This document shows, piece after piece, positions 8,370 to 52,501 of a stretch of DNA of 64,000 bases. The number at the start of each line of letters is the position of its first letter. The stretch's first letter is position 1. The position numbers and the translations under genes were made by a program. The notes under the pieces were generated by a model. It was not told where the DNA came from. It searched no databases and was given only the letters and a program-made list of their open reading frames with translations. Source of the DNA: Planctomycetota bacterium (GTDB taxonomy: Bacteria > Planctomycetota > PLA2 > JAEUHO01); the NCBI GenBank assembly GCA_030066775.1, contig JASJAY010000001.1, positions 4,612-68,611 on the forward strand. Reading direction: 5' to 3'.

Positions 8370-9851
8370 ATGACGGACGTCTCCCTCGAACCGGGGCAGG
8401 CCATTGACGCGGTATGGTCGGAGCGCGCGCGCGGGCTCTCGCCCGCCCAGCAGGACGCGCTCCTCGAGCGGGCGGACGCGATCCGCAACGAGCCCGAGGG
8501 TGCCGCGTCGGCGTACGGGTGCTACCTGGCGCTGCAAGAGCGCCTCCACCTCTCTCGGCCGGCGGATGTAGAGCGCACGATCTGGCTCTTCGAGCACATG
8601 GAGGTCGCCGATCCCAGCCTCATGCTCCTCGCTCGCGCTGCCGCCGAGACGACGGCGTGCACGGAGCTCTGGTTCCAGGGGCGGCTGCGGGTCGCGCAGA
8701 TCGAGCGCGAGCAGGGCCACATCCGCGCGGCCGAGAAGCTCCTGTTCGTGCTCCTGGGGGACGTCGCGGGCCAAGACGAGCGCTGGGAGGCGCTCGTGGC
8801 GGCGAACCTGTCGCTCTGCTTGCGACACCTCAACCGCGAGGTCGAGGCGCTCGTCCTCTGCCGGCGAGCCCTGGCCGGATTCGAGCGGCTCGGCGACCGG
8901 CGTCGGGCGATCCGCGTGCGTCAGGTGGTCCAGAACATCCTCATCTCGTTCCATGACTGGCGGCGCTATGAGCGTGAGCGCGAACGGCTCGAGCGCGACA
9001 TCCCCGAGCTCGCCGAAGCGGAACGTCGTCAGGTCGACATGTCGGACCTGATGATGCGCGCCCAGGCCGCCTTCGAGCGCAACGCGTTCGACACGGCGCT
9101 CGTTCACCTCGACGAGGTCGAGGCGCGGTTCTCGCATCGTCGGACTTGGGCCCTCGTGACGCGCGCGTTCGTTCTCGCCGTGATGGGGCGTGGCAGCGAG
9201 GCCCTGGCCGTGCTCGGCGCCGACCCCGCCGAGCACGAGTACGGTCCGCAGTACTCGATTCAGAACGACACCACGCGAGTCCTCTGCGCCCTCCAGAGCC
9301 AGGCGCCCGACGAGGTCGAGAAGACGGCGACCGCGTTCCTGGATCGCCTCGAGGCGGGGACCGAACCGCCGGGCAACCGGATCACCATGCTCCTGCACGT
9401 GGCCCGTGAGCTGGGGCGCCTGGGGGAGCACGGCGCGCTCGCCAAGCGCGCCTACGACCTCGCGGCAGCCGCGATCGTCGAGCGCATCCTCGAGGTCGAT
9501 CGTTTCGCCCGCGAACGGCCTACGCTCATCGAGCTCTCGGCCGAGGAGCGCAGCACGCTCGGCGAGCTGCGTATCCGCCTGCTCGCCCGGCACGAGGAGC
9601 TCATGCGTGCCGTTGGTCGGCTGCTCTTGGAGGCGCGTGCCCGCGGGGAGCCGATGCCCTCGGAGTGGTACGGCAGCGAAGGTCTGCTCTGCGTCTGTGC
9701 CTGGTGCGGGCGCATGAAGCGCGGGGACGACGGCTGGGTGCCGGTGGGGGCGTTCATCCCCGACGACAGCACGCTGCAGCTCACGCACGACATCTGTCCC
9801 GACTGCTATCACGAGCGAGCCCAGAACGGCAACGCCACCAAGTCGTCCTGA
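8370..9851 (+). CDS. hypothetical helical-repeat (TPR-like) protein with C-terminal CxCxxC...CxxC motif
   Basis: Track ORF 8298..9851. ATG 8370 is preferred, but 8298 remains possible. Mostly alpha-helical repeats. The C-terminus reads LLCVCAWCGRMKRGDDGWVPVGAFIPDDSTLQLTHDICPDCY. Confidence 0.6.
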   Translation: MTDVSLEPGQAIDAVWSERARGLSPAQQDALLERADAIRNEPEGAASAYGCYLALQERLHLSRPADVERTIWLFEHMEVADPSLMLLARAAAETTACTELWFQGRLRVAQIEREQGHIRAAEKLLFVLLGDVAGQDERWEALVAANLSLCLRHLNREVEALVLCRRALAGFERLGDRRRAIRVRQVVQNILISFHDWRRYERERERLERDIPELAEAERRQVDMSDLMMRAQAAFERNAFDTALVHLDEVEARFSHRRTWALVTRAFVLAVMGRGSEALAVLGADPAEHEYGPQYSIQNDTTRVLCALQSQAPDEVEKTATAFLDRLEAGTEPPGNRITMLLHVARELGRLGEHGALAKRAYDLAAAAIVERILEVDRFARERPTLIELSAEERSTLGELRIRLLARHEELMRAVGRLLLEARARGEPMPSEWYGSEGLLCVCAWCGRMKRGDDGWVPVGAFIPDDSTLQLTHDICPDCYHERAQNGNATKSS

Positions 9852-11077: not shown

Positions 11078-11155
11078 CGGGGCGTGGCGCAGATTTGGTA
11101 GCGCGCCTGAATGGGGTTCAGGAGGTCGCTGGTTCGAGTCCAGTCGCCCCGACCA
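11078..11155 (+). tRNA. tRNA-Pro (anticodon GGG), CCA encoded
   Basis: Hand-folded cloverleaf. Acceptor CGGGGCG/CGCCCCG; D arm GCGC-AGATTTGGTA-GCGC. Anticodon arm CCTGA-ATGGGGT-TCAGG with GGG at 11113-11115. T arm GCTGG-TTCGAGT-CCAGT, discriminator A, then CCA. Confidence 0.9.
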
Positions 11156-47342: not shown

Positions 47343-48734
<1,392 letters not shown>

Positions 48735-49016
48735 TCCGACCGCGACCCGTTGTGTCCGGCCATTCGAGCCCACGCGGCAAGGTTCTGTTTCGAGATGCGG
48801 GCTAGGTGAAATTACGCAAAACGCGTGTAAGCACGCGGTCTGTGGAAACCCCATGGAGAAGCCTGCGGAGTCGCGTGGGCATTTGCGTTCCCACCAAGTG
48901 TTCCTGGGTTCCCAAAGTCGGAACCCCAACGCGCGAACGAGGTTGTGTGCACTGTGCACGAGCAATCCACAATTTGGGTGGGGTGTGTCGTGCTCACATG
49001 AGTCGCGTGCGCATTG

Positions 49017-49033
49017 TGCACAAGCGAAGTGCA
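49017..49033 (+). promoter_or_regulatory. candidate enhancer (UAS): TGCAC-N7-GTGCA inverted repeat
   Basis: TGCACAAGCGAAGTGCA is a perfect 5+5 inverted repeat with the 17-bp geometry of NtrC-type sites. It lies about 90 bp upstream of the -24 element. Nearby are tandem GTGCAC hexamers (48947-48952, 48954-48959) and AAGTGCR copies (49027, 49044, 49093). An A7 tract (49088-49094) sits between the UAS and the promoter. Confidence 0.45.
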
Positions 49034-49113
49034 TCGGGGCGCAAAGTGCGTGAAAACGTGGTTAACGGTCGATTGGCGGCCGCTCTCAAAAAAAGTGCGA
49101 AGTGGAGGAGCAT

Positions 49114-49129
49114 TGGTCCAGCCGTTGCT
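49114..49129 (+). promoter_or_regulatory. candidate sigma-54 (-24/-12) promoter
   Basis: TGGTCCAGCCGTTGCT has GG at 49115-49116 and GC at 49127-49128, the exact spacing of TGGCACG-N4-TTGCW. The -12 box TTGCT matches consensus. The -24 flank TGGTCC is imperfect. Confidence 0.55.
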
Positions 49130-49139
49130 CTCTACCTCC

Positions 49140-50437
49140 CGTCCGAAACGGACAACGATCTTTGACAGCACTGGCGATCGGACGAGACGACTAGTTGTGC
49201 ACCGATGAGTGGCGGTGCCGGGCAGCGGGCCCGGGATCTGCTGCTGCGCAACGGCGGGAAGTCGTGGATCGAGCGCACTTGTCAGACCCGACGCGCGCTG
49301 ACGAAGCGAAGGGGCAGCAATGTCCTGGAGCGGAAGCGGAGCGCGGACGTGATGACAAGGCGGAGCTGGTGGCAACACCGGCGCCCGGCGTGAACCACAT
49401 CCAATTCGTTGGCCTTCCTTTCCGCCGTAGCGGACGGAGCATCGTCTGCTGAAAGGTGAGAAACCTCACGAGAGCTGGGGGTCCGGAGACGGACCACCCG
49501 ACTCGCTCGAGCCCGAGACCCTGAGACCCGGATGGATAGGGACGTCACCCCATCCAAGGGTGCGAGGGGAGGCTCCGCGACCAAAGCGCGGGCCAGGTCG
49601 AGCGGGAGCACGCTCTGGAGAGGAACGGAACCTCAAGACGGGATCGGCGGCCGGAGCCGACGGGGGCTTGCCCCTGGACGCCCCGGTGCTGAACGGACTC
49701 GCCGCGGGAACAAGGCCCTGAAGGCGACTGCCGGCTAAAGCTCCACACCTCCGGGTGGCGGGGCGGCAGCTGGCGGCAACGGCAAGAGGGCAGGGACTCC
49801 GAGAGGAGCACCCATCGCGGTCGAGGGGAACCCCGTGAAGAGTGAAGCCCATGGGCGCTCCAGCGCGCTTGACGTGCTGGGAGGCGTGCGGTGCCGAAAG
49901 GTGCCGGGGGCCGCAAGGCCTAGTGGTGTACGCCGCGAAGGAGGTAGCCAAACCTCGCACGTGGCACGCGACGGCGGAGGGATCCGCCGTCATGACGCGG
50001 GACCACCGCGCTGACACTGTGCCGTAGGGCAGACAAAGTCCAGGAGAGGAAGCGAGGCTCCGAGCCCGGAGCGTGGCGCAAGCCGCGTGAACGGGGACGG
50101 GTCACGCCGACTCGCGAATGTCGTCCTCTGAAGGGGCGCGAAAGCGCATGGAGGGTCGCTCGAAGGCTTCGGCCGACGGGCAGCTCCACGATCGAAGACC
50201 CGAAGGGCGTTGAACGTCGAACGGGTAGGGCGGAACCCATAGCCGTCCTAGAGCGTGGAGCGTGTGTCCTCGAAGTGCCGCGGAACCCCATGAGAGGCAG
50301 CGAAGCCGGGCCGCAAGGTCCGGGGGAGCAGACACTGCGACTCGAAAACCTCTGGAGGACCGGAACAACTGGTCATCGACTCCGTCGTCAGGCTTCATCG
50401 GCCCGGGGCGTGGGCAACCACGCTCCGGGCTCTTTTC
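49140..50437 (+). ncRNA. candidate large structured RNA of unknown family (boundaries approximate)
   Basis: No credible ORF in the interval. Perfect helices are capped by GAGA (49480-49495), CTTG (49663-49674), GCAA (49909-49920), GCAA (50072-50087), GAAA (50136-50147), TTCG (50165-50174) and GCAA (50306-50323). The 3' end is terminator-like. The 5' end is inferred from the sigma-54 promoter. Confidence 0.4.
50401..50437 (+). terminator. intrinsic-terminator-like hairpin at the end of the candidate RNA
   Basis: GCCCGGGGCGTGG-GCAA-CCACGCTCCGGGC forms a 13-bp stem with one G-T pair, followed by TCTTTTC. Confidence 0.5.
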
Positions 50438-50506
50438 AATTGTGGACGCATCCGAGATCGAAACGCGCATGGATGCGGTACCGATGGGTGAGCACCATTG
50501 GCGATA

Positions 50507-50536
50507 GGGCGCCCACAAGGGGCGCCCCCTACTACC
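50507..50536. repeat. 30-nt palindromic element, left copy of an inverted pair
   Basis: GGGCGCCCACAAGGGGCGCCCCCTACTACC contains the local hairpin GGGCGCCC-ACAAG-GGGCGCCC. It is the reverse complement of 50634-50663 at 28 of 30 positions. Confidence 0.7.
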
Positions 50537-50633
50537 ACATGTCATCGCGGTGGGGGGCACCACGCCGACGTCCAACGCGCCGATCGTCGTGAACGGCACG
50601 ACACACTTTCGTCGGCCATGCGTGATCGCGGGC

Positions 50634-50663
50634 GGTAGTAGGGGGCGGCCCTTGTGGCCGCCC
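50634..50663. repeat. 30-nt palindromic element, right copy of an inverted pair
   Basis: GGTAGTAGGGGGCGGCCCTTGTGGCCGCCC contains the local hairpin GGGCGGCC-CTTGT-GGCCGCCC. Confidence 0.7.
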
Positions 50664-50751
50664 TGGCGCCATGGGTGGCCTGCAACCCCGGGTTCCCATA
50701 CGCGTTTCGTCGGGTTGATGTTCGATCCACAGTGGCGTGGATCAACGCGCC

Positions 50752-51783
50752 CTACACGATGCCGAGGTCTTCGGACTCGTCCTTGTAGGCGCGACGCATG
50801 AGGGAGGTGACGACCTCGAGGGGCTCCTTGCCCTCGTTGATGACGAGGTACATCTCCTCGGTGATCGGACCCACGAGACCGTGCTTGTGGATGAGATCGC
50901 GGATTGCGCCCACGCTCTTCGCACCCTCGGCGACCTGCTGCATGCTGGCCATGATGTCCGTGACCTGCTCGCCGCGTCCGATGCGCTCGCCGAAGGTGCG
51001 GTTGCGGCTGGCCTTCGAGTAGCAGGTCGTCATCAGGTCGCCCAGACCGCTGAGTCCGAAGAAGGTCTCGCGCTTGCCGCCGAGCGCGACGCCGAGTCGC
51101 GCCATCTCGAGCAGCCCGCGGGAGACCAACGCCGCCTTCGCGTTGACCCCCAGGCGCATGCCGTCGCACATGCCGGCCGCCAGCGCGATGACGTTCTTGA
51201 GCACGCCGCCGAGCTCGACGCCGATGAGGTCGGGATTCGAGTAGGCGCGGAACGCATCGCCGGAGAGCGTCGCCTGGATGCGTCGCGAGAGATCGAGCGA
51301 GGCGCTCGACACGACCGTGGCCGCCGGCTTGCCCTCCGCAATCTCGCGCGCGATGTTCGGACCGGACAGGACCGCGATCGTGTGCTTCGGTCCGGCCACC
51401 TCCGCGAGCACCTGGGTCGGACGCATCAGCGTGCCCTGCTCGAGGCCCTTCGAGACGCTCACGATCGGCAGGTCCTCGGGGACGCTCTGCGCATGCTGCG
51501 CCCACACGTCGCGCAGGAACGTGGTGGGCACCGCCGAGATCAGCAGGTCCGCGCCGTCGACCAGGTCGGTGAAGCGGCTGCAGACCCGCACACCCTCGGG
51601 TAGGTCGAAGCCGGGGAGGTAGCGCGGGTTGTGCCGGCTCTCCTCCATCAGCGCCGCGTAGTGCGCGTCGTACGACCAGATCGCGACGTCGTGGCCCGCA
51701 GCGCGGAGCAGCATCGCCAGCGCGGTGCCCCAGCCGCCGTCGCCCACGACCACGATCTTCTCGAACGGTTGGACGGCGTTCAC
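50752..51783 (-). CDS. gpsA: NAD(P)H-dependent glycerol-3-phosphate dehydrogenase
   Basis: Track ORF 50752..51912 trimmed to GTG 51783 after GGGGAGGG. Rossmann motif VVVGDGGWGTALA. Full-length GpsA-like sequence (GPNIAREIA, LKNVIALAAGM). Confidence 0.9.
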   Translation of the reverse strand: MNAVQPFEKIVVVGDGGWGTALAMLLRAAGHDVAIWSYDAHYAALMEESRHNPRYLPGFDLPEGVRVCSRFTDLVDGADLLISAVPTTFLRDVWAQHAQSVPEDLPIVSVSKGLEQGTLMRPTQVLAEVAGPKHTIAVLSGPNIAREIAEGKPAATVVSSASLDLSRRIQATLSGDAFRAYSNPDLIGVELGGVLKNVIALAAGMCDGMRLGVNAKAALVSRGLLEMARLGVALGGKRETFFGLSGLGDLMTTCYSKASRNRTFGERIGRGEQVTDIMASMQQVAEGAKSVGAIRDLIHKHGLVGPITEEMYLVINEGKEPLEVVTSLMRRAYKDESEDLGIV

Positions 51784-51811
51784 CGGCCCTCCCCGTGCGG
51801 AGCCGCGGGCG

Positions 51812-52501
51812 TCAGAGCTTCTGATCGGCGTCGCCGACCCGGCGCTCCGTGCCCCGCAGCACGCGCTGGATGTTGCTGCGATGACTCCACACGACGAAGC
51901 CCGCCATGACAAGCAAGAAGGCGAAGACGACGAAGCGTGCGTGGAAGGTGTCGGCGCCGTTGTCGAGCCAGTACGACAGCGGCATCATCACCATCGCCGC
52001 GATCGAGCCCATGCTCATGTAGCGGGTGATGCCCAGGATCATGCCCCACGCCCCGAGGCCGGCGAGGGACGAGAGCGGCGCGAGGGCCGTGACGACCCCG
52101 AACATGGTCGCGACGCCCTTGCCGCCGCGGAAGCGCAGATACGGCGTGAACACGTGGCCGAAGATCGCGGCCGTGCCGGTGATGACCTGCAGCGCGAGGC
52201 CTGTGCTCTCCGAGTCGAGCACGCGGCCGACGGCCGCGGCGGCCTCCACCGAGAAGAGCGCGACGAAGAGTCCCTTGCCGAAGTCGAGCGCGAACACGAC
52301 GACGAACATCGCGATCGAGCGCCAGCCGGACCACTGCCGGGCGCAGTTCGTGGCGCCCACGCCGCCGCTCCCGACCTTGCGCAGATCCACGCCCTTGAAC
52401 GTGCGCGCCATGATCCAGCCGAACGGAATGCCCCCGATGAGGTACGCAGCAACGGCGAGGAGGATCTCGGCGGTCGGCGTTCCCATGCTGATGAAGGCCA
52501 T
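51812..52501 (-). CDS. plsY: glycerol-3-phosphate acyltransferase PlsY
   Basis: Track ORF 51812..52651 trimmed to ATG 52501. Motifs GSGGVGATN and FRGGKGVAT. Five to six TM helices. Confidence 0.9.
   Translation of the reverse strand: MAFISMGTPTAEILLAVAAYLIGGIPFGWIMARTFKGVDLRKVGSGGVGATNCARQWSGWRSIAMFVVVFALDFGKGLFVALFSVEAAAAVGRVLDSESTGLALQVITGTAAIFGHVFTPYLRFRGGKGVATMFGVVTALAPLSSLAGLGAWGMILGITRYMSMGSIAAMVMMPLSYWLDNGADTFHARFVVFAFLLVMAGFVVWSHRSNIQRVLRGTERRVGDADQKL

Follow-up and report, generated by a model that had tools for sequence, protein, structure and literature searches.

The subject of this work is a spacer of 2 kb (48735-50751) in the genome of a Planctomycetota bacterium, which separates the gene of a sigma-54 enhancer-binding protein, hereafter the activator, from gpsA (50752-51912, minus strand). 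It lies within a stretch of 64 kb from contig JASJAY010000001.1 (assembly GCA_030066775.1), to which we refer as the window and in whose coordinates positions are given. Our analysis shows that the spacer encodes a large non-coding RNA, transcribed from a sigma-54 promoter to an intrinsic terminator, and that this product is a regulated, conserved, highly structured and end-processed RNA in which one internal-loop motif is reused at least ten times. A first-pass annotation of the same DNA had drawn attention to recurring sequence modules in the spacer and had taken the three longest copies as a single class. They belong to two classes: the copies at 49827 and 50282 are strands of the RNA block built around this loop, and the copy at 48844 is a piece of the upstream DNA. 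We give this reading as a whole (two classes of repeats, a structured and processed RNA with a reused block, and an upstream copy that is DNA) a probability of about 0.8.

A non-coding RNA gene conserved among homologous loci

The GC content of the source genome is about 70%, and the GC difference among codon phases, which amounts to 0.43-0.62 in the bodies of the flanking genes, is only 0.02-0.15 in the spacer (median across the RNA family, 0.039). Neither strand shows codon periodicity or a conserved reading frame, and the plus strand is purine-rich from about 49100 to 50400. The longest open reading frame (ORF) of the minus strand has a median length of 267 amino acids (aa) across the family, with start positions that are scattered. 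We regard these antisense ORFs as annotation artefacts, because the RNA contains only 12% U and its antisense strand is poor in A and in stop codons. Public gene calls of 182-293 aa without any Pfam match lie antisense to the RNA in several homologous contigs, which are designated by L-numbers: L081:8816-9697(-), L082:8403-9050(-) and 9268-9840(-), L084:2246-2794(-) and L086:8901-9746(-).

The promoter stands directly downstream of the activator gene and follows the consensus TGGYCC-N5-GTTGCT, with GG-N10-GC spacing, both in the window and in L081-L085. It predicts a transcription start near 49140. At the opposite end, the hairpin of the terminator is conserved with compensatory changes (GUGGGCAACCAC / GCGGGAAACCGC / GCAGGUAACUGC). 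No family of Rfam 15 recognizes the RNA, including OLE, GOLLD, ROOL, CrcZ, CsrB/Rsm, group I and II introns, RNase P, tmRNA, 6S and the self-cleaving ribozymes. At gathering thresholds the only match in the whole window was a tRNA (11078-11152); at E<=10 the region 48600-50900 gave five matches at chance level (miRNA, snoRNA and sRNA models), and a search of 15 diverse homologues returned only tRNAs in their flanks. Neither the RNA nor its loop motif is described in the literature that we searched.

Homologues were collected by running one degenerate pattern of 29-31 nucleotides (nt), which matches all eight aligned sequences, on metagenome contigs. It was found in 105 contigs, five of them by chance; the other 100 carry true homologues (nhmmer E-values from 1e-69 to 1e-276). 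Ninety-eight of these are near full length, 84 share less than 93% identity, and the mean pairwise identity is 67%. The same pattern had no match in viral contigs, and blastn against plasmids gave none either. The RNA is abundant in environmental RNA data; contig names point to many data sets from rivers, estuaries, soils, groundwater and the sea.

A reused internal loop and the upstream copy of the repeat

For the alignment of 98 sequences, RNAalifold predicts 325 pairs in 73 helices, laid out as a long closing stem, a central junction and five arms (A-E). In the 84 sequences left after redundancy removal, canonical pairs make up 90% or more of most helices, two to five pair types are found per position, and the covariation score is 0.38, as compared with 0.09 when partners are shifted. 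Arm E was checked independently on 32 sequences of less than 80% identity. Double compensatory changes were found for 33 of its 44 predicted pairs, paired cells reached 95% (83.5% in shuffled and 37-50% in slid alignments), and none of 500 shuffles attained any of the five measures used. The linkers between arms are 4-7 nt long and mostly end in AA (GGAA, AGAAC, UGAA and CACGAAA). Arms B-E all open with the same block and then lead to a three-way junction, from which a short hairpin and a long arm extend. Mutual information with average product correction was computed for pseudoknots and tertiary pairs, and the top pairs outside the structure were clade markers.

The opening block consists of a GC-rich helix of 4 bp, a symmetric 3x3 purine loop (5'-ANG-3' opposite 5'-GNA-3') and a second helix of 5 bp. 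At least ten well-conserved copies of it occur in the RNA, at the base of four of the five arms (B-E) and, in both orientations, inside arms; the strand consensus is 5'-C-A-N-G-R for alpha and 5'-Y-G-N-A-G for beta. Counted over ten copies in 84 sequences (840 loops), the outer loop pair beside helix 1 is AA in 660 cases, GG in 130, CA in 43 (~5%) and AG in one. The outer pair beside helix 2 is GG in 818 cases, and the middle pair is free. Of the closing pairs, those at one side of the loop are C-G (598) or G-C (172), and those at the opposite side A-U (451) or G-C (368). Conservation of the loop purines reaches 94-100% in most copies; with the switch between A.A and G.G counted, this holds for all ten. 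So strict a switch is, on these sequence counts, the behaviour of a real non-canonical pair that would be selected for its shape.

Individual copies illustrate this pattern. The A, G, G and A positions of the loop of motif 5 (numbered as in the table) are 100% conserved, and the end pair of the loop of motif 10 is A.A in 37 sequences, G.G in 25 and C.A in 19. In motif 8, three of the four pairs show compensatory changes from GC to AU, each in 4-6 of 32 sequences, and in motif 9 the alignment column pair 35/212 is GC in 15 sequences and AU in 14. Like the kink-turn and the loop E/sarcin-ricin motif, this is a short non-canonical purine loop, reused within one large RNA, with substitutions that preserve geometry. 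In contrast to both, it is symmetric (3x3), like faces like (A.A, G.G) and the middle base is free. The second G.A position of a kink-turn is variable here and there is no bulge; the conserved U and the AGUA/GAA arrangement of loop E are likewise absent. Readings of the loop as UAA/GAN or as a CsrA-type GGA site were rejected on strand logic.

The coordinates that the first-pass annotation gave for its repeats are all correct. On the plus strand of the spacer there are three copies of the composite pattern GGAA(A)CCCC-R-TG..GAAGCC, and the window has no other on either strand. In 2000 first-order Markov simulations of the region, the mean count was 0.00 for the composite and 0.003 for its core GGAA(A)CCCCRTG, although the pattern was defined post hoc and the simulated significance is overstated. 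A chance origin of the repeat pattern is excluded. GGAA(A)CCCC alone is found nine times in the window, with four copies in the spacer region. Two further core copies, at 49462 (GAAACCTCACGAGAG; GAAACCUCACGAGAGC) and 49630 (GGAACCTCAAGACGG; GGAACCUCAAGACGGG), had been overlooked, as had the complementary partner strands of the repeats. TGAACGG is a weaker signal, with 12 copies in the window when both strands are summed. Its site at 49690 lies in a conserved block, that at 50088 in a variable hairpin and that at 50590 outside the RNA; the sites are not kept as a set among homologues, and TGAACGG was rejected as a second module.

Within the RNA the repeats are real and are kept in the 84 aligned homologues. 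Modules 2 and 3 (the second and third long copies) occupy equivalent contexts in the covariation-supported fold: each provides one strand of the same helix-loop-helix block, and each is preceded by a GNAA-type linker. The earlier proposal of an internally duplicated RNA domain or a repeated recognition motif fits these internal copies, but not the copy at 48844, which is not RNA. The GAAGCC that had been included in the shared module is conserved in module 2, where the whole stretch is 80-99% conserved and GAAGCC is made up of a linker and the first helix strand of motif 5; in module 3, by contrast, it falls in a variable hairpin.

The block that contains module 1 (the copy at 48844) is partly conserved in the upstream DNA of other loci (L081 TGTGGAAAACCC, L082 TGTGGAGAACCCTTGGAGAAACC, L084 TCTGGAAAACGCGTGGAAGAAC). 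Its consensus over six aligned upstream spacers, TGTGGAAAACCCGTGGAGAAACC, can be read as a pair of RTGGARAARCC units with a spacing of about 11-12 bp. Conserved palindromes follow this block (GTGGGCA..CCCAYCA and TCCACAAT..ATTGTGGA), and a direct repeat, D9, is present at 48945-63 and 49007-25; the short copy at 48920 is upstream DNA as well. Module 1 is probably a binding site for a regulator, to judge by this arrangement. Coincidence is the preferred explanation of its resemblance to the RNA strand, and a shared origin of the two is possible. The suggestion that the 48844 motif acts at the DNA level is thus plausible for this tandem element in its partly conserved block, but does not extend to the internal copies. 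The other suggestion, that transcription starts earlier or reads through from the activator gene, is unsupported, as none of the RNA-type contigs among the 100 homologues reaches upstream of the promoter or of the predicted sigma-54 start.

A conserved element TGGGG-N8-(T)GCY was seen 135-240 bp upstream of the promoter in four loci (window 48979-48994, L084:1841, L082:8546 and L085:8574). It fits the GG-N10-GC spacing and overlaps the TGGGG..CCCA palindrome, and it may be a site for the activator, not a second promoter.

Mature ends, locus neighbourhood and activator

Among the 100 homologous contigs, 55 consist of the RNA only, with both ends in the closing helix P1, 15 start in the leader and seven are DNA-like, with flanks on both sides. 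The 55 RNA-only contigs have their first base close to profile position 85 and their last close to position 1147, in each case to within a few nt. That 55 independent assemblies share both ends without flanking DNA is as expected of a stable processed transcript; we read the RNA-length contigs, from their shape, as metatranscriptome assemblies. Most RNA-type contigs begin about 28 nt downstream of the predicted sigma-54 start, in the closing helix. Among those that start in the leader, the longest have their first base near profile position 40-44, as estimated from the bases that stand unaligned before the alignment begins; this is 11-15 nt past the -12 GC, where initiation by sigma-54 is expected. 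The mature RNA of the window is longer than typical by about 150 nt, with expansions at ~49273-49361 and 49867-49907. Both segments are absent from nearly all homologues, and each folds as an extra hairpin or arm of its own. The insertion at ~49273-49361 (repeat D1) was considered as a fresh copy of the motif and rejected, its predicted loop (GAA/GGA) being of a different type.

P1 has 7 bp that are 88-100% canonical, with the family form 5' CUGACGA / 3' UCGUCAG. Variants are CUGAUGA/UCAUCAG, CCGACGA/UCGUCGG and CUGACGU/ACGUCAG, and the compensatory changes are UA to CG (six times), CG to UA (twice) and AU to UA (once). The leader (..AACAAGC) and the trailer (GCUU(C)GUU) are able to lengthen P1 by about 7 bp. 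When the circle-type contig L165 is compared with the precursor L084, the cuts fall at -3 for the 5' end and at +4 for the 3' end, which corresponds to a 2-nt 3' overhang. We hypothesize from this geometry an RNase III-like trimming of the leader/trailer duplex. In many RNA-only contigs the 3' end reads ...GUCAGGC followed by a single additional base (G, C or A), not the U of the genomic trailers examined (L114, L125, L127, L134, L140, L143, L151, L155, L158, L167, L176, L178, L181, L182 and L191). This extra base could be a partial junction, the product of tailing or an assembly edge effect. Four other contigs (L129, L160, L177 and L187) carry 42-465 nt of unrelated 5' sequence and may be assembly chimeras.

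Nine contigs cross a junction that leads from the 3' end to the 5' end of the RNA. Eight of them have two profile matches, which join positions ~1147-1154 (1188 in L180) to ~77-82; the ninth, L189, has a single profile match, yet crosses the junction. The two ends of the contig are identical in six cases, over 123 nt in L122, L126 and L141, 120 nt in L168, 92 nt in L165 and 71 nt in L189. Identical ends are the signature of a circular or tandem template in de Bruijn assembly, and 123 is the largest k in the recipe used for transcriptomes with MEGAHIT at the JGI (Joint Genome Institute). Genomic tandem repeats are excluded, because every DNA contig has a single copy with its promoter and terminator. 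The circle-type contigs give unit lengths of 1044-1091 nt, and the junction sequence, ...UCGUCAG-GCUU/(A)GCA-CUGACGA... (slash at the joint), lies inside the loop that closes P1. The RNA is thus end-processed and, to go by these contigs, possibly circular.

A protein search returned about 90 clear orthologues of the activator, with 54-71% identity over the full length, and an orthologue stands directly upstream of the RNA element in all seven loci that were fetched. In these loci the activator gene is followed by 1.5-2.6 kb without Pfam-matching gene calls, the two exceptions being a gene for a PrsW protease (L086) and one for a protein with an RNA recognition motif (RRM; L082). When the spacers were compared by blastn, about 850-1030 nt aligned at 65-70% identity in five loci, 622 nt in L085 and short pieces in L087. 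Further downstream, gpsA is present in six of the seven loci, with plsY beside it in five, and L085 has three large unannotated genes in place of gpsA. A DUF4011 helicase gene is inserted between the RNA and gpsA in L081 (10203-14585, minus strand), and a serine recombinase gene lies upstream of the activator in L082 (4428-6251, plus strand). The RRM-domain gene (L082:10282-10578, minus strand) encodes an RNA-binding protein and was considered as a partner of the RNA; it was rejected, as it is present in this one locus only. A scan of contigs with the activator protein gave only paralogues (best identities 36-56%, mostly over the AAA+ and C-terminal part), and the RNA is absent from their loci.

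The activator matches the Pfam families Sigma54_activat (1e-69), AAA_lid_14 and HTH_8. Pfam and NCBIfam recognize no family in its N-terminal residues 1-115 (none in 1-140). The AlphaFold2 model has a mean predicted local distance difference test (pLDDT) score of 87, and its residues 1-110, with means of 85-97 in blocks of ten residues, adopt a (beta-alpha) fold of the receiver type. The best PDB matches of the model are chains of NtrC1, NtrX, NtrC4, FleQ and LuxO that contain a receiver and the central domain. Where receivers carry an acidic DD pair, the orthologues have the consensus VLIVGRGG. On the model, this N-terminal domain (47343-47690) probably represents a pseudo-receiver, comparable to that of FleQ or VpsR, and would sense something other than phosphorylation.

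Between the terminator of the RNA and the gpsA stop, an imperfect hairpin of about 290 nt (50440-50730) was observed. Its arms, 50493-50549 and 50621-50677, are 79% complementary, and the minimum free energy is -175 kcal/mol for 312 nt. The window has no second copy of this hairpin; elsewhere, a piece of 32 nt recurs in L082 and nothing more.

Table. Positions of the features discussed in the text (window coordinates)
Feature	Position	Strand	Basis or partner
Sigma-54 enhancer-binding protein: receiver-like N-terminal domain, AAA+, Fis-type helix-turn-helix	47343-48734	+	Pfam and predicted model
Long copy 1, GGAAACCCCATGGAGAAGCC	48844-48863	+	sequence
Long copy 2, GGAACCCCGTGAAGAGTGAAGCCC	49827-49850	+	sequence
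Long copy 3, GGAACCCCATGAGAGGCAGCGAAGCC	50282-50307	+	sequence
Short copies GGAACCC(C)A	48920, 50232		sequence
TGAACGG sites	49690, 50088, 50590		sequence
Module 1, TGTGGAAACCCCATGGAGAAGCC, tandem RTGGARAARCC, ~270 bp before promoter, not RNA	48841-48866	.	upstream-spacer alignment
Inverted repeat TCCACAAT...ATTGTGCA around TGGGG-N8-..CCCA; candidate activator binding region (upstream activating sequence, UAS)	48966-49023	.	conserved blocks
Sigma-54 promoter TGGTCC-N5-GTTGCT (-24 GG / -12 GC)	49114-49129	+	same element, same place in L081-L085
Leader with conserved CTTTGACA..AGC, able to pair with trailer; removed from mature RNA	49140-49167	+	15 contigs retain leader, 55 begin after it
Mature RNA, ~1228 nt in the window	49168-50395	+	homology; ends from junction contigs
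P1, 5' strand CUGGCGA	49171-49177	+	pairs with 50385-50391
P1, 3' strand UCGUCAG	50385-50391	+	
Arm A	49199-49459	+	consensus fold
Arm B	49464-49623	+	consensus fold
Arm C	49631-49843	+	consensus fold
Arm D	49847-50030	+	consensus fold
Arm E	50038-50360	+	consensus fold
Motif 1, alpha CCUC-acg-AGAGC, base of arm B (copy 49462)	49464-49475	+	49612-49623 GCUCU-gga-GAGG
Motif 2, CCCU-gag-ACCCG, G.G/N.N/G.G variant	49519-49530	+	49557-49568
Motif 3, alpha CCUC-aag-ACGGG, base of arm C (copy 49630)	49631-49642	+	within module 2
Motif 4, beta CCCU-gaa-GGCGA	49716-49727	+	49779-49790 ACGGC-aag-AGGG
Motif 5, alpha GCCC-aug-GGCGC, base of arm D	49847-49858	+	50019-50030 GUGCC-gua-GGGC
Motif 6, CGCG-aag-GAGGU	49934-49945	+	49952-49963
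Motif 7, alpha GUCC-agg-AGAGG, base of arm E	50038-50049	+	50349-50360 CCUCU-gga-GGAC
Motif 8, beta CCUCU-gaa-GGGG (framed as CUCU-gaa-GGGGC at 50126-50137)	50125-50136	+	module 3 alpha strand, 50286-50297
Motif 9, GCGC-aug-GAGGG	50144-50155	+	50267-50278 UCCUC-gaa-GUGC
Motif 10, CCCG-aag-GGCGU	50199-50210	+	50214-50225 ACGUC-gaa-CGGG
Module 2: linker GGAAC, motif 3 beta CCCGU-gaa-GAGU (49832-49843), linker GAA, GCCC of motif 5 (49847-49850)	49827-49850	+	
Hairpin with 9-nt loop holding short copy GGAACCCAU (50232); conserved, other element than the 3x3 motif	50228-50248	+	
Module 3: linker GGAA, motif 8 alpha CCCC-aug-AGAGG (50286-50297), start of variable hairpin	50282-50307	+	
Trailer with intrinsic terminator, stem 50400-50431, then CUUUUC; removed from mature RNA	50396-50437	+	

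Alternative readings and comparable known systems

We propose that, when the activator fires, the RNA would be transcribed from its dedicated sigma-54 promoter, and that leader and trailer would pair and extend P1. The extended helix would be cut in the style of RNase III, with a 2-nt 3' overhang, and in at least part of the molecules the ends would be joined, which would yield an exonuclease-resistant circle of about 1.05 kb. Each 3x3 loop may form a stacked purine-purine element of fixed geometry, four base pairs away from a junction. The arms could then pack together or bind a partner protein, so that the whole RNA would be a stable scaffold made on demand, with closed ends as protection. 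The arms would have arisen by serial duplication of one module; duplication of an arm is the likely origin whether the RNA is a scaffold or titrates a protein. We put forward the architectural or docking role of the loop tentatively, on the predicted geometry, and rate it a little below even. A scaffold role has precedent, because ROOL, GOLLD and OLE form RNA-only homo-oligomeric assemblies (PMC12286853).

Several points weigh against our reading. All evidence is computational, and the RNA origin of the ~1.05-kb contigs was judged from their shape (shared precise ends, no flanks, start sites), not from sample metadata. The 3x3 loop comes from the predicted secondary structure and was matched to no named motif. 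The helices beside the loops are similar between copies, and some partner assignments rest on modest covariation (scores 0.12-0.56). The search for tertiary contacts was dominated by phylogenetic signal, and no conserved neighbouring gene points to a partner protein. As to the circle, the contigs that cross the junction could stem from concatemers or from template switching by reverse transcriptase on ends held together by P1. The position of the junction varies by 1-5 nt between taxa, and a single junction fits the RNase III offset exactly; the ends of L168 and L131 give a 1-nt overhang. In addition, L180 (1-1096) joins the terminator stem to the leader (..CCCGGGCUC to CGACAAGCG..), unlike the other permuted contigs.

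The main alternative is that the ten loops bind one RNA-binding protein, which would be titrated when the activator fires. CrcZ sequesters Hfq/Crc in this way, and CsrB and RsmZ sequester CsrA. The order of activator gene, sigma-54 promoter and non-coding RNA with its own terminator matches that of cbrB-crcZ, the RNA offers ten near-identical sites with invariant purines per molecule, and AGGA or UGGA occurs in many of them. However, sequence and pairing are conserved over all 1.05 kb and not at the sites alone, unlike in known sponges. Moreover, the sites are internal loops within helices, where a sponge would present GGA or A-rich tracts in single strands or hairpin loops. GGA is not invariant, its middle base being free, and the A.A to G.G switch favours selection on geometry; nor is a candidate protein gene linked to the RNA in the fetched loci. 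We consider a sponge rather unlikely.

The copies might also be leftovers of a tandem duplication of arms, with no shared role at present. Arms B-E do share their opening block and the layout with a three-way junction. Nevertheless, the loop purines are kept across sequences that average 67% identity while their surroundings drift, and copies are found deep inside arms in both orientations, where neutral remnants would be expected to decay. It seems quite improbable that the copies are remnants and nothing else.

We attach very little credence to the idea that all copies are DNA sites of the activator or another DNA-binding protein: the 48844 copy does lie in untranscribed, partly conserved upstream DNA, but the internal copies have partner strands at a distance of hundreds of nucleotides, show compensatory changes with them, are kept in the processed RNA and are strand-specific (three on the plus strand, none on the minus strand), and activator sites would be expected upstream of the promoter, where other palindromes are conserved. 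Hardly more credible is an autonomous circular replicon (viroid- or Obelisk-like) or a circle processed by a ribozyme, in place of a product of the host whose ends its own enzymes join: RNA-type assemblies do contain circularly permuted contigs of about 1.05 kb, but chromosomal contigs carry one copy per locus with conserved synteny, promoter and terminator, Rfam finds no self-cleaving ribozyme or intron family even at E<=10, the fold is branched and not rod-like, and there is neither a conserved ORF nor a match in viral contigs. A hammerhead, suggested by CUGANGA at the 5' end and GUC at the 3' end, was rejected; the heptamer CUGACGA forms one side of a helix in which compensatory changes occur, and none of the ribozyme models matches.

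With CrcZ/CrcY of Pseudomonas the RNA shares a dedicated, regulator-dependent sigma-54 promoter and a terminator right after the gene of an enhancer-binding protein, as well as a short repeated motif. In contrast to CrcZ/CrcY, it is about three times larger, conserved and base-paired throughout, its motif is an internal loop and not an A-rich tract, and its ends are trimmed and perhaps joined. The exposed protein motifs of CrcZ and CsrB, in single strands or hairpin loops, have no counterpart in its helix-flanked element. The RNA resembles OLE, GOLLD and ROOL in its size class, the lack of an ORF, an elaborate structure backed by covariation, many GNRA-type loops and high conservation. However, it matches none of them in sequence or structure, comes from another phylum, is longer (1.05-1.23 kb) and has repeated modules with one loop; it also differs from them in its sigma-54 control, in ends that are processed to the closing helix and in contigs that span the junction.

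Cellular circles offer a further comparison, and precedents for circular cellular RNA exist in bacteria (PMC10504365; bioRxiv 10.1101/2025.06.30.662392). As in the archaeal rRNA and sRNA circles, bacterial DucS and circular RNase P RNA, the flanks can pair so as to bring the ends together, and contigs cross the junction. Here, in contrast to the archaeal cases, the organism is a bacterium; there is no bulge-helix-bulge, the cut geometry looks RNase III-like, the family is new and the evidence for circularity comes from assemblies only. A similar circle size is found among circularly permuted group II introns, retrozymes, viroid-like RNAs and Obelisks (circles of 0.3-1 kb). Unlike them, the RNA has no intron domains or ribozymes, is chromosomal with promoter and terminator, is branched and lacks an ORF. 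It belongs to none of its nearest kinds, which are the ornate RNAs in size, CrcZ in the design of the locus and circular isoforms in the joining of ends.

It is conceivable, though doubtful on present evidence, that the whole constitutes a previously undescribed class: a genome-encoded, sigma-54-induced, ornate RNA of Planctomycetota of about 1.05 kb, matured to a covalent circle, evolved by serial module duplication around an undescribed homopurine 3x3 loop (A.A/N.N/G.G) and possibly nucleating a multi-protein or RNA-only assembly. For public annotation, the analysis corrects the 'hypothetical proteins' of 180-290 aa called antisense to the RNA. The RNA would combine three unusual traits, a sigma-54 switch of its own, trimmed ends that may be sealed into a circle, and a modular build on a repeated non-canonical loop. 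If our reading is true, it points to a class of very large structured RNA that is new and exceeds OLE, GOLLD and ROOL in length. If the circle is real as well, this would be the largest class of non-ribosomal structured RNA in bacteria, and the first large circular one.

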